Of a stretch of 64,000 nt of DNA, positions 5,623-47,980 are shown in pieces. Numbering within the stretch: position 1 is the first letter of the stretch; each line of letters starts with the position of its first letter. The stretch is from Eledone cirrhosa (Eukaryota). A program made the position numbers and the translations under genes. The stretch is taken from the NCBI GenBank assembly GCA_964016885.1, contig OZ024743.1, forward strand, positions 165,354,001 through 165,418,000. The letters run 5' to 3'. Under the pieces are notes generated by a model. The model made no database searches and was not told the DNA's origin. It saw nothing but the letters and a program-made list of their open reading frames with translations.

Positions 5623-7850
5623 TTTTTCAGTTATAATATAAAGCGCTCAACAGTATTGGAGCAAAAATATATGCAAAGGTTTTATTTAAAATTGTTGGGT
5701 TACAACAAGTAAATATTTTATAACTGATATAAAGCACTCGACAAGTTTTTGGAGTAGATATACGATATTAAACAAATGGAAACTATATTTATAAAACCAT
5801 ATTTATTTCATTATACATATCTCAGGGATACCATATTAAAAATATGGCATGCCTTCGTCAGATAAAATACAATATATAACCAGTTTTATAAATAATTTTG
5901 ACGTACCATAAATACCATTAAGGTAGAAAGCTGGCTTGGTAGTGAAGTGTTTATAAATATTTAGTGTTAAGCACAGTTACAAAGAAAGACAGAGAAAAAG
6001 AAGAAATGTATGTAAAGAAAAACAGAGAGAAATAGAGAGAAATAGGGGAGTGAGAAAGAGGGAGGAGGTAAAAAAGAGAGGCAACTGAAGTTGATCACGT
6101 AAAGTCATGTATGTCTATATTATCAACTAGAGCTTGACATGACTTTCTCTTTCTCTTTTTCTTTTCTTTTTTCAGAAAGTGCATATGCATGTGTATGTAT
6201 ATACTTATATATCTCCGTATTTTTATAAATAGGGTAATTTTTTGAAGATTTATCTCATTTTTTTTGAAGATTTATCTCAGTTTTTGGTACATTGACCTCA
6301 GAGTTTTAAACTAAACATATGGTCATTATTGACCAAAATTATTTTCACACATTATATATCTATGTCTCATTCATGAATATTAATATTTACATTATATTAC
6401 CCAGTTCATATGAATTGATAATTCAAATTGATAGGACATAACGTAAAGATGTAACTATATCATTCCTCTCTAGATATAGCTCTTTCTTCTCCTATCTCTT
6501 TATATATGATGAAGTTTATGTATCTGTCGTTTTGACTTTGCCTCTCATGTTTCTCTCTTACTTCTCTCTTGATTTTCACCCCCTATATAATTATTATTAT
6601 TTTTTCTCCCTCTTTCTTTTCCTCCCACCCCTCTCTCTCTCTCTCTGTTTTCTCCTCATCTCCATTTTTTTTTTCTCTCCGTCTCTTCTCTAACTGTGCT
6701 TAACACTATAACTAAATAATTACCGTACTCCCTCCCTCTTAAATCTCTCAATTTGTATGATGAATTAGTATTATTCATCTGTTGCCTTCGGTTGCCTCTC
6801 TTTTTTACCTCCTCCCTCTTTCTCACTCCCCTATTTCTCTCTATTTCTCTCTGTTTTTCTTTACATACATTTCTTCATTTTCTCCGTCTTTCTTTGTAAC
6901 TGTGCTTAACACTAAATATTTATAAACACTTCACTACCAAGCCAGCTTTCTACCTTAATGGTCGCTATATTTATGGTACGTCAAAATTATTTATAAAACT
7001 GGTTATATATTATCTGACGAAGGCATGCCATATTTTTAATATGGTATCCCTGAAATATGTATAATGAAATAAATATGGTTTTATAAATATAGTTTCCATT
7101 TGTTTAATATCGTATATCTACTCCCAAAACTTCTCGAGTGCATTATATCAGTTATAAAATATTTACTTGTTGTAACCCAACAATTTTAAATAAAACTTTT
7201 GCATATATATATCTATATATCTATATATATATATATATATATATATATATATATATATATATATATATATATATATATATATATATACCTATATATATAT
7301 ATATATATATATTTACATATATATATACATATATATACATATATATATACATATATATATATATATATATATTTAGAACACTATATGTATATATATATAT
7401 ATATAAATATATATATATCTATATATATATATATATATGTATATATATATGTATATATATATATATGTATATATATATGTATATATATATATATGTATAT
7501 GTATATATATATATGTATATATATATATATGTATATGTATATATATATATATGTATATATATATATGTATATATGTATATGTATATATTTATATGTATAT
7601 ATATATATATGTATATATATATATATGTATATATATATATGTATATATATATATATGTATATATATATATATATGTATATATATATATGTATATATGTAT
7701 ATATGTATATATATATGTATGTATATATATATATGTATATATATTTATATATATATATGTATATATATATATGTATATATATATATATGTATATATATGT
7801 ATATATATATATGTATATATATATGTATATATATATATATGTATATATAC

Positions 7851-8470
7851 ATAAAATCAAGGTCTAGCAAATAGAGAAAATTTTAAAAATAAATTTTAAA
7901 AAATTCGCTGTATTTACTATATGTGCCTTTACACGGTTTCATGCTCCAGAATAAACGGAAAATCCAAGCGGATTTCCATTGAGAAGGGAGCAATCTTCTC
8001 ATTCGGAGAATATAAAATTCCCGAGTTCAAATCACAAACTGACGCCATAAAAAACCATTCCGAAATGAGAGCGAATGATGAAAGAAATAATTCTGTCTGG
8101 TGCCTGTGCAAAGACAAAAGGCAGGGTGGACAGGTCAATGTCCTACCACTAGAAATAGCCGCATTCCAAACGGCCAAAATTTTATCTCTGCCTTAGGGGG
8201 AGATCAATAATCATAAAGTATGAATTCCTACATGTAAAAAATACATATAGGGAAACAAGTATTATCCAACCGTATGCCAATGTGGTTCTATGGCGGGTTA
8301 ATAAATTAACAAGCCAGAACATATAAAATCAAGGTCTAGCAAATAGAGAAAATGTTTTAAAATATATTTTAAAAAATTCGCATACTTACTATATGTGCCT
8401 TTACCGCGGTTTCACGCTCCAGAATAAACGGAAAATCCAAGCGGATTTCCATTGAGAAGGGAGCAATCTT
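7851..8470. mobile_element. Non-coding element: ~471-bp unit plus ~148-bp direct terminal repeat between TA tracts
   Basis: 7851-7998 repeats at 8322-8470; minus strand carries GAAA-ccgcgg-TA (HHR 3' half-like) and several hairpins. Confidence 0.65.
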
Positions 8471-8906
8471 CATATGTATATATACATAGGTATATATATA
8501 TATACGAATATATATATATATATATGTATATATATATGTATATATATGTATATATATATATATGTATATATATGTATATATATATATGTATATATATGTA
8601 TATATATATGTATATATATATGTATATATATATATATATATACGCAAGCAGCGATACATAGGTATTCCGTCTGTTACAGAAACATATGTCAATACCTAAT
8701 AAATTCCTTTATAAAAAAAAAGCACTTTCATTTTATATTCATCTTTTCTACATTTTCTCCGGAATATAATTTATACTCGTTGAGCAAACCTACACGTACG
8801 CTGTTCATCTCTAACGTAACGATATATTATCACTAGATTATTGATAACCTGAAATTTTAATAATCTCCTATACAGTTGAGCAACTAATTTAGCATACGCC
8901 TCTAAA

Positions 8907-46794: not shown

Positions 46795-47636
46795 ATCCAA
46801 AATTAAATTAAGGGCTTTCATGTCTGAGAGACATGCGCCATATCTACTGTAGAATAAGCTCAAAGATTCCAATAAATAGATCCGAGCATTACATATCAAC
46901 TAGAAATAGATTGACATATATATATATATATAAAATAGATACATGGACCAATCACAGGGAATAATTTGTAAAGAATGTAAGCACACATAGCTAGGTAGGT
47001 AACCAATTAAAGTTTAACTAAAACTTCAAATATAGATACCTTTTAAAATGATTAATCTCCTTTGTATATATTTCTTTAAGTAAGAAATATATTTCACCAA
47101 TTAATCAGTAGATCACAGCAGTCAAATCCTGGATGGTCACCAAAGGAGAAGAAAATAACTATCTGCGTTTACAAAGCAAATGCAAATTTGTGAATGACTC
47201 GCACCACGTGTTACATTTTTATAAAAATACACACATCGCACAGCGTCATCCCAGTGGCGTGAATAGGATTACCGACAGCTAGAAATAGCAGCCGAGTCCA
47301 TTCAACTGAATTAGCTCAACAATCAATGGGCCGTATATATATCCAAAATTAAATTAAGGGTTGTCATGTCTGAGAGACATGCGCCATATCCACTGTAGAA
47401 TAAGCTCAAAAATTCTAATGAATAGATCTGAGCATTACATATAAACTAGAATTAGATTGACATATATATATATAAAATAAATACATGGAACAATCACAGG
47501 GAATAATTTGTAAAGAATGTAAGCACACATAGCTAGGTAGGTAACTAATTAAAGTTTAACTAGAACTTCAAATATAGATACCTTTTAAAATGATTAATCT
47601 TCTTTGTATATATTTCTTTAAGTAAGAAATATATTT
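46795..47636. repeat. ~545-bp unit plus ~295-bp direct repeat between TA tracts
   Basis: 46795-47094 repeats at 47340-47636. Confidence 0.85.
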
Positions 47637-47780
47637 ATATGTGTATATATATATATATATATATATATATATATATATATATATATATATATTATATATA
47701 TGTATATATATGTACATATATATGTATATATATGTATATATATATGTATATATATATATATATATATATATATATATATA

Positions 47781-47980
47781 TTAGAAAGTGAGGTTTTTTT
47801 TACAAAATGAAAAATAACCGAGGTGTCCTACACGAGTGAAAAACCACAGACCCTCCATCTCAACTCATCCTTTGAAAAGCAGAAGAACTGCGAAACCGGT
47901 AAAGGAACCAAATAAATATATATATTTAAAAAAAAAATAAGACTTCAGTTGCATTTTCGATTTCATCTCTTTTTTCTTTA
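47781..47980 (+). mobile_element. Solo Neptune-like pLTR fragment with TTGAAAA-core HHR (47868-47906)
   Basis: TTGAAAA-gcag-aagaa-ctgc-GAAA-ccgg-TA-aagga; homologous to 19255-19445. Confidence 0.75.

Follow-up and report, generated by a model that had tools for sequence, protein, structure and literature searches.

Minimal type I hammerhead ribozymes are found in the pseudo-long terminal repeats (pLTRs) of Penelope-like elements (PLEs), where they cleave as dimers with a palindromic stem III; their reading as sensors of a second copy is established (PMC4209133; PMC6765202). In the published double hammerhead, two copies build an extended stem III (PMC4209133, Fig. 1 legend and text). Here we describe the short-stem-III type I hammerheads of PLE-type terminal repeats in a 64-kb stretch of the 3.0-Gb genome of Eledone cirrhosa (contig OZ024743.1, 165354001-165418000), which we call the window and to which the positions below refer. 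Their stem III palindrome likely pairs with that of a second copy, and it is likely kept for this self-pairing alone and not for its difference from the palindromes of other families (probability about 0.75).

The closest described system, the PLE pLTR hammerheads of Cervera and De la Pena (2014; PMC4209133), shares with the hammerheads of the window the type I topology, the extra base after A9, the U3-A8 variant, the palindromic 15.2-16.2 and loop 3, the presence of several families per genome, and the dimer model. Fig. S3 of that paper gives different stem III palindromes for different families, with 2/3 Aedes families sharing one, and varied palindromes across families also appear in the Fig. 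S8 legend of PMC3088659, where U4C is a natural low-activity variant. Unlike the hammerheads presented in PMC4209133, those described here have a stem III mostly of 6-10 nt and not the minimal 4, several stem II regions of 50-116 nt, and U4C in family E. A 319-bp array in the window and the 400-500-bp tandems of family D match the non-LTR (long terminal repeat) retrozymes in unit size and in having one hammerhead per unit, and among those retrozymes axolotl motifs with a weak helix III cleave much better as dimers (PMC7229834; bioRxiv 10.64898/2026.07.22.740005). The RWK/RWR and DKT motifs define the Hydra-clade PLEs (PMC8557442, section 11), and the open reading frames (ORFs) beside families A, B, and C share with that clade RWK/RWR plus DKT, a C-terminal GIY-YIG-like YVG, and (TA)n neighborhoods, in a comparison of motifs alone (Craig et al., 2021; PMC8557442). 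In HIV-1, the short palindrome of the dimerization initiation signal (DIS) differs between lineages and lowers heterodimers, from ~45% to 20% co-packaging (PMC3187697). That palindrome lies in a kissing loop and acts between separate genomes in trans without catalysis (PMC3187697), whereas here it forms a ribozyme stem, stem I would be exchanged as a second helix, and partner choice is read from the sequence only.

A type I hammerhead descriptor blind to stem III pairing was run on the window and on 139 evenly spaced 10-kb loci (1.39 Mb). A fully self-complementary stem III of at least 6 nt was present in 117 of the 165 descriptor matches with a score of at least 10, as against 0/10 in reversed and 0/2 in shuffled sequence; stem III self-complementarity is well above chance expectation. 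Locus L099, a satellite with 50 false descriptor matches, was excluded, so that family counts cover 138 of the 139 random loci. Clustering and BLAST expansion gathered 454 hammerhead copies (410 from the 138 random loci), which extrapolates to ~0.9 million hammerhead fragments and ~0.4 million intact motifs genome-wide; the families were curated by hand, and several are based on 1-2 copies. Among 52 tabulated families, 36 have a fully self-complementary stem III of up to 12 nt and 5 have hairpins, while the remainder consists of 6 with an odd-length stem III with an unpaired center and 5 with mismatches. Folded alone, the monomer stem III hairpins of up to 12 nt are all predicted to be unstable (+0.4 to +6.0 kcal/mol).

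The anatomy of each family comprises a core box, stem II, GAAA, a UH triplet, and stem I, and the palindromes are located precisely between GAAA and the cleavage triplet. The earlier note on this DNA had listed 11 strings, and all of them do follow GAA where it placed them, at stem III of type I hammerheads in repeats that have the form of PLE terminal repeats. Counting copies outside the window too, the core boxes C3-A9, G12-A15.1, and U16.1-H17 were found in 11/11 listed families, and the versions CTGANGA, TTGANAA, or CCGANGA account for all 11. The U3-A8 core occurs in family C, the 319-bp array, and both ACCGGT motifs, and family E has CCGAnGA (U4C) throughout its subfamilies including the youngest, with CTGA in a few copies (window 45736-45742, L182-L221). 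Stem II and a closing stem I are present in most families, but B has a stem I of only 1 contiguous bp and the ACCGGT motif at 40733 one of 2 bp, both weak. Some of the listed window copies are incomplete: those at 23804, 8679, and 15171 have no catalytic box, intact cores being present in other copies, and that at 8413 has no C3, intact relatives existing elsewhere. Insertions of 84-116 nt in stem II occur in several families (L083:2539, L057:3516, L064:2538, L036:6769, and window 11707), and short descriptors would miss hammerheads that carry them. The window is AT-rich and crowded with (TA)n repeats and broken retrotransposon ORFs, and an Rfam scan gave 170 matches, of which the 150 listed included no hammerhead model and were mostly microsatellite and hairpin noise.

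The case for pairing between two copies comes from variation within families, for which family E and the array family were counted by hand over the first 100 genome matches. In family E, the first 100 of 6,928 matches comprised 39 ACAATTGT, 15 ACAGTTGT, 22 ACAGCTGT, 19 ACGATTGT, 1 ACGATCGT, and 4 mismatched forms, and no A·C form was found among them. In a tree built without the palindrome from 40 copies selected by variant, ACAGCTGT (10 copies, 98.8% identical, bootstrap 87) was nested in ACAGTTGT (20 copies, 98), which was in turn nested in ACAATTGT. Two adjacent bases of the palindrome covary via a G·U step, from ACAATTGT to ACAGTTGT to ACAGCTGT, and their adjacency leaves a second copy as the only possible pairing partner. 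A like pattern is present in the array family, with two main Watson-Crick palindromes plus G·U intermediates: the first 100 of 1,184 matches held 35 ACAAGGCCTTGT, 19 ACAGAGCTCTGT, 1 ACAGGGCCCTGT, 20 G·U forms, and 25 mismatched forms, 8 of which were counted as A·C. In family D, the palindrome is close to fixation, being present in 95 of the first 100 of 25,752 matches. Conservation within families, a check that the earlier note proposed, is seen in these matches of D but not in those of E and the array family, which are polymorphic. With a palindromic stem III that varies by compensated changes and a bias of G·U over A·C, dimer-type pairing of stem III, as the earlier note supposed, is well supported; the requirement for two copies was itself already published (PMC4209133). 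A further difference from the published minimal hammerheads is that the path from wobble to compensation is followed here within families.

Two other explanations of the palindromes meet this covariation directly. They might be DNA-level sites, for protein binding or as targets, or by-products of (AT)n-rich sequence, and ATAT(A/G)TAT is indeed very common in the microsatellites of the window (1,737 occurrences not preceded by GAA). At a DNA-level site, G·T and A·C variants should arise equally often, as a palindrome in DNA is strand-symmetric, yet G·U outnumbered A·C by 15,492 to 8 copies in family A (one expanded subfamily) and by 14 to 5 family-variants in the random sample (one-sided p 0.03), and this argues against a DNA-level site, as does the exact placement of the palindromes between the two conserved elements of the ribozyme; we regard this explanation as hardly credible. 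Very improbable, too, is a stem III that folds as a hairpin in the monomer, with no need of dimers. True hairpin stems III do exist in 5/52 families (predicted -1.4 to -8.3 kcal/mol), including those at window 33935, 38525, and 41969, the 12-nt array palindrome is borderline (+0.7), and efficient cleavage of the monomer is reported for many invertebrate retrozymes (PMC7229834). On the other hand, a hairpin cannot account for the covariation seen at neighboring central bases in family E and at loop positions in the array family.

The earlier note had gone further and proposed that each family uses a different palindrome, which would act as a dimerization barcode. This proved false in the window and in the genome, where palindromes are shared across families, several occur in one family (E, array), and non-palindromic and hairpin types are found. 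Other families also carry six of the 11 palindromes (ATAT(A/G)TAT, ACATATGT, ACTAGT, ACAATTGT, ACCGGT, and ACGGCCGT), and a seventh, ACGTACGT, is compatible through wobble pairs with two others. ACAATTGT has 11,835 genome matches (control 46) and occurs in at least three abundant dissimilar hammerhead types, and ACGGCCGT was found in at least three further types. For 24 of 36 dimer-type families there is another family with a fully compatible stem III. Across 37 families, we counted 27 different palindromes, and 30 of the 666 family pairs were compatible, both figures very near a composition-matched null that keeps lengths and column frequencies (27.2 distinct, 25.8 +/- 4.0 compatible pairs), while a uniform null gave 31.6 distinct palindromes and 6.0 compatible pairs. 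Neither one distinct palindrome per family nor more distinct palindromes than chance was therefore found. A selected code should yield fewer collisions than chance, which the observed count does not, and diverged co-resident relatives that keep one palindrome are not predicted by displacement. Judged from these sequences, a palindrome that serves as a family-specific selected barcode is not supported. No published claim of a barcode in PLE hammerheads was found in the literature searched, a search that did not cover Lunse et al. (2016).

How far the palindromes isolate families depends on a second helix. If the geometry of the double hammerhead applies, each core would take the cleavage site and the 3' strand of stem I from the other copy, so that stem I would be exchanged too. 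By nearest-neighbor energies only, computed for clamped duplexes, 76/78 pairs of the listed palindromes are predicted to fall short of the weaker homodimer by at least 3 kcal/mol, the 2 exceptions being variants within one family. Among the 30 stem III-compatible family pairs, stem I reaches at least 3 bp both ways in 2 and at least one way in 13; two A-like families, both abundant, are compatible in stem I as well as in stem III, and the stem I strands of the ACCGGT motifs at 40733 and 47892 are not cross-compatible. Same-strand neighbors within 4 kb pass both stem tests in 67/71 same-family and 2/73 different-family pairs, and of the latter 67/73 are predicted to be excluded by stem III alone, 66/73 by stem I alone, and 71/73 by both together. 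Co-resident families are thus mostly predicted not to cross-react, as the earlier note held, but by way of two drifting helices rather than a dedicated code: the absence of cross-reaction requires stem I and is not due to the palindrome alone. Its family-specific dimers fare likewise, in that the listed palindromes mostly are predicted to cross-pair poorly, but they are shared, polymorphic, no more diverse than chance, and absent in a family of 9,571 matches. With diversity at the level of chance and stems I and III together separating 71/73 neighbor pairs, isolation looks like a by-product of drift.

It remains to weigh selection for difference itself, that is, palindromes driven apart so that co-resident families neither cleave nor pair with each other. 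The energy penalties and the neighbor pairs incompatible at stem III alone speak for it, as do sister lineages that share stem I and differ at stem III (E ACAATTGT vs ACAGCTGT; A-like ATGCGCAT vs ATATATAT), and the HIV-1 DIS is described as a case in which such a code can operate (PMC3187697). The diversity equals chance, however, with collisions fivefold over the uniform null (30 vs 6.0), and among 11 families drawn at random, no palindrome is repeated in 20% of cases; ACAATTGT and ACGGCCGT are spread over several dissimilar types, the two A-like families are compatible in both stems, and change runs through wobble forms compatible with old and new states. We consider such selection distinctly unlikely. 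A related idea, unlikely as well but a little less so, is that the stem III palindrome keeps sister PLE subfamilies apart in the manner of a DIS-like lock. For the end states of family E, the ACAATTGT x ACAGCTGT heterodimer is predicted at -9.1 kcal/mol, against homodimers at -13.3 and -18.0, while wobble intermediates are predicted to pair well with parent and daughter forms (clamped duplexes). A lineage completing the change from ACAATTGT to ACAGCTGT, with stem I and core unchanged, would then stop pairing with its parent, and dimer dependence together with two-stem incompatibility might also spare host transcripts from being cut by several hundred thousand solo and mixed-family copies, the insulation being under selection.

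In the explanation that we prefer, a palindrome kept for self-pairing, the palindromes of two copies likely complete stem III, and the core of copy 1 would cleave copy 2, with stem III and stem I both forming between the copies, in keeping with the published geometry. The partners would most plausibly be two pLTRs or tandem units in one transcript. Any palindrome would work, so that lineages could diverge by wobble and then compensation, and incompatibility would build up as a by-product across stem I and stem III together. Alternatively, the palindrome may serve dimerization between RNAs in trans, bringing two element RNAs into one reverse transcriptase (RT) complex for template jumping or partial tandems, with cleavage secondary. 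Consistent with this, a direct (same-strand) same-family neighbor within 4 kb was found for 58 of 327 sampled copies, an underestimate owing to the 10-kb loci, with an inverted one only for 106 and none for 163 solo copies; moreover, dimerization is predicted for the PAc protein, and an RNA fragment of the pLTR (-126/+235) is reported to be cleaved only with protein added (PMC11167929). The cores, stem II, and cleavage triplets are kept along with the palindrome, though, solo copies are the expected products of truncated insertion, and sequence cannot separate cis from trans; we think pairing in trans as the main function quite improbable.

Several observations weigh against a palindrome maintained simply for self-pairing. 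The count of 15,492 G·U against 8 A·C variants in family A reflects one expanded subfamily and not 15,492 events. The mismatch rate of the palindromes, 84/1,230 (0.068), is not below that of the flanks, 1,478/20,424 (0.072), with subfamily variants counted as mismatches. A large family of 9,571 matches has no Watson-Crick palindrome (58 AGAACT and 42 AGGACT in the first 100), so that either self-pairing can be done without in some cases, or the ribozyme of this family is dispensable. The composition-matched null draws its column frequencies from the data themselves and has modest power. A clustering of family consensus flanks by relatedness chained 31/37 families into one group and was discarded, its figures for "unrelated pairs" being unused; relatedness was therefore not removed, and part of the palindrome sharing is by descent. 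In the published systems, activity is low even as dimers, which qualifies the copy-sensor reading (PMC4209133; PMC6765202), and for one lizard PLE hammerhead, cleavage is described as dependent on protein and not observed in RNA-seq, and as unnecessary for insertion in vitro (PMC11167929).

The listed hammerheads of the window are as follows.

1660..1720, - strand: family A hammerhead in the downstream pLTR of element A1, ATATGTAT
5800..5861, - strand: family A hammerhead in the upstream pLTR of A1, GAAA box mutated; same strand as the 1682 copy, 4141 nt away
7014..7075, + strand: family A hammerhead with ATATGTAT (7055-7062) as stem III, lying in inverted orientation upstream of the Hydra-type PLE A1
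8400..8473, - strand: hammerhead, ACCGCGGT at 8403-8410; C3 lost at a microsatellite edge (copy 8413), second decayed copy at 7940
8633..8753, + strand: partial upstream pLTR of family B with GAAA, ACATATGT (8682-8689), cleavage triplet, and 3' strand, without catalytic box
11707..11830, + strand: full family B hammerhead, CTGAAGA, ~90-nt stem II region, ACATATGT (11807-11814)
15643..15720, + strand: hammerhead, ACTAATTAGT at 15701-15710; partial copy at 15171
17815..17855, - strand: family D hammerhead, ACTAGT, core mutated
18822..18880, + strand: hammerhead, ATGATCAT at 18863-18870
23141..23580, + strand: two direct family D hammerheads, ACTAGT at 23165 and 23563, 398 nt apart
23770..23825, + strand: 5'-truncated hammerhead, ACGGCCGT at 23807-23814; the core and the long stem II are present in other copies alone (L064, L047)
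32140..32455, no single strand: inverted pair of family A hammerheads, ATATATAT
36510..36548, + strand: family C hammerhead with ACGTACGT at 36532-36539 and the U3-A8 core; a Hydra-type endonuclease fragment lies 421 nt upstream
37519..37560, + strand: family D hammerhead, ACTAGT
40131..40170, + strand: family C-type hammerhead, ACGTACGT at 40154-40161
40712..40750, + strand: hammerhead of the first ACCGGT family, ACCGGT at 40736-40741, weak stem I
42393..44032, - strand: retrozyme-like array of 5.1 units of 319 bp, with one U3-A8 hammerhead in each unit; stem III is ACAGGGCCTTGT in 3 units and ACAAGGCCTTGT in 2
44320..44365, - strand: family E hammerhead, ACAATTGT, truncated upstream
45732..45782, + strand: family E hammerhead, core CCGAAGA (U4C), ACAATTGT at 45766-45773
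46420..46458, - strand: family D hammerhead, ACTAGT
47872..47906, + strand: hammerhead of the second ACCGGT family, ACCGGT at 47895-47900, 28 copies in the sample
48040..51715, - strand: element A2, in which family A hammerheads at 51678 (ATATGTAT) and 48059 (ATATATAT) flank a broken Hydra-type ORF

What the earlier note had called "Neptune" ACCGGT is two motifs, at 40733 and 47892, with different stems I and II, and the array palindrome that it gave, ACAAGGCCTTGT, is present in 2/5 units, the other 3/5 having the wobble variant ACAGGGCCTTGT. A copy of the 47892-type family at G000:C4:23060299 reads ACCGCGGT, with a 2-nt central insertion that preserves the palindrome, which suggests a route by which palindrome length may change. 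Family B is very young, with at least 13 genomic copies 100% identical across 151 nt. Its stem I is weak, and 8 nt of its stem II region are predicted to pair with the strand 3' of the cleavage site; this competing 8-bp helix is either a loop II contact or an apparently inactive fold. In element B, the upstream pLTR (8633-8753 +) retains the substrate half of the ribozyme only; within a double hammerhead, the downstream core could cleave it, but it could not cleave in return.

The following ORFs were identified in the window.

3396..5598, - strand: PLE ORF A1 with RWR, DKT, YRDD, and YVG, Hydra-type RT plus GIY-YIG, frameshifted
8895..11069, + strand: PLE ORF B with DKT, YRDD, and YVG, Hydra-type, frameshifted
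24373..26247, + strand: PLE ORF with DKG and YLDD, Pfam GIY-YIG; putatively Neptune-like by linker cysteines
52830-56252, - strand: non-LTR RT ORF, Pfam RVT_1, 1140 aa, unrelated to hammerheads
58799-62332, - strand: non-LTR RT ORF, Pfam RVT_1, 794 aa plus upstream pieces, unrelated to hammerheads

Direct repeats with hammerheads flank PLE-type ORFs in family A (5823/1682 and 51678/48059) and family B (8679/11804), and among the listed families an RT-GIY-YIG ORF context is tied to A and B (flanked) and C (endonuclease fragment). Linking families to ORFs by proximity was mostly uninformative, and most other hammerhead families have no assigned ORF. By the RWK-type plus DKT motif test, in which B has DKT and no RWK-type match in the motif scan, the ORFs near A, B, and C are probably of the Hydra-clade type. 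A Pfam search gave no match for the A, B, or C ORFs and named one PLE ORF (24-26 kb), and a PDB search with ORF B gave no match. In the 319-bp array, 5/5 units have the form of a retrozyme, in which tandem units of 170-400 nt each carry a type I hammerhead. Retrozyme-like tandem arrays were also seen in the family of the 15701 hammerhead (556-bp units, 11 copies; L058:4154-9708), an ACGCGT family (310 bp; L112:8416-9966), and family D (430 bp; L087:6885-8177).

The list in the earlier note was selective, since it left out hammerheads with AGAACT, ACCCAAAT, hairpin, and ACGT/AATT stems III.

1072, - strand, and 17431, + strand: minimal hammerheads, ACGT/AATT
12015..12215, no single strand: inverted pair of hammerheads, stem III AGAACT non-palindromic (12029-, 12201+)
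33231, + strand: hammerhead with a non-palindromic stem III, ACCCAAAT
33870..33960, no single strand: inverted pair of hammerheads with a hairpin-type 16-nt stem III (33892-, 33935+)
38480..38560, + strand: hammerhead with an 8-bp hairpin stem III (38525+), predicted monomer-competent
41926..42000, + strand: hammerhead with a 5-bp hairpin stem III (41969+), predicted monomer-competent

The inverted pair at 12015..12215 belongs to the large family of 9,571 genome matches, whose other form, AGGACT, could self-pair via tandem G·A pairs (predicted -8.6 vs -4.5 kcal/mol). The commonest motif, F16 (window 45921 +; 84 copies in 42 sampled sources), is mostly a head-to-head inverted pair of core-less hammerhead 3' halves, forming a long hairpin like that of a miniature inverted-repeat transposable element (MITE).

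The motif and the dimer model were already published, and a new recognition code is not supported by our analysis. For pairing of stem III between copies at the RNA level, the recently expanding lineages of this genome offer comparative evidence that is unusually direct. The genome also contains natural test pairs with the same stem I and core and different palindromes, on which partner specificity may be measured. If true, the DIS-like lock would be a partner-selection rule of the retroviral style in a non-viral retrotransposon.

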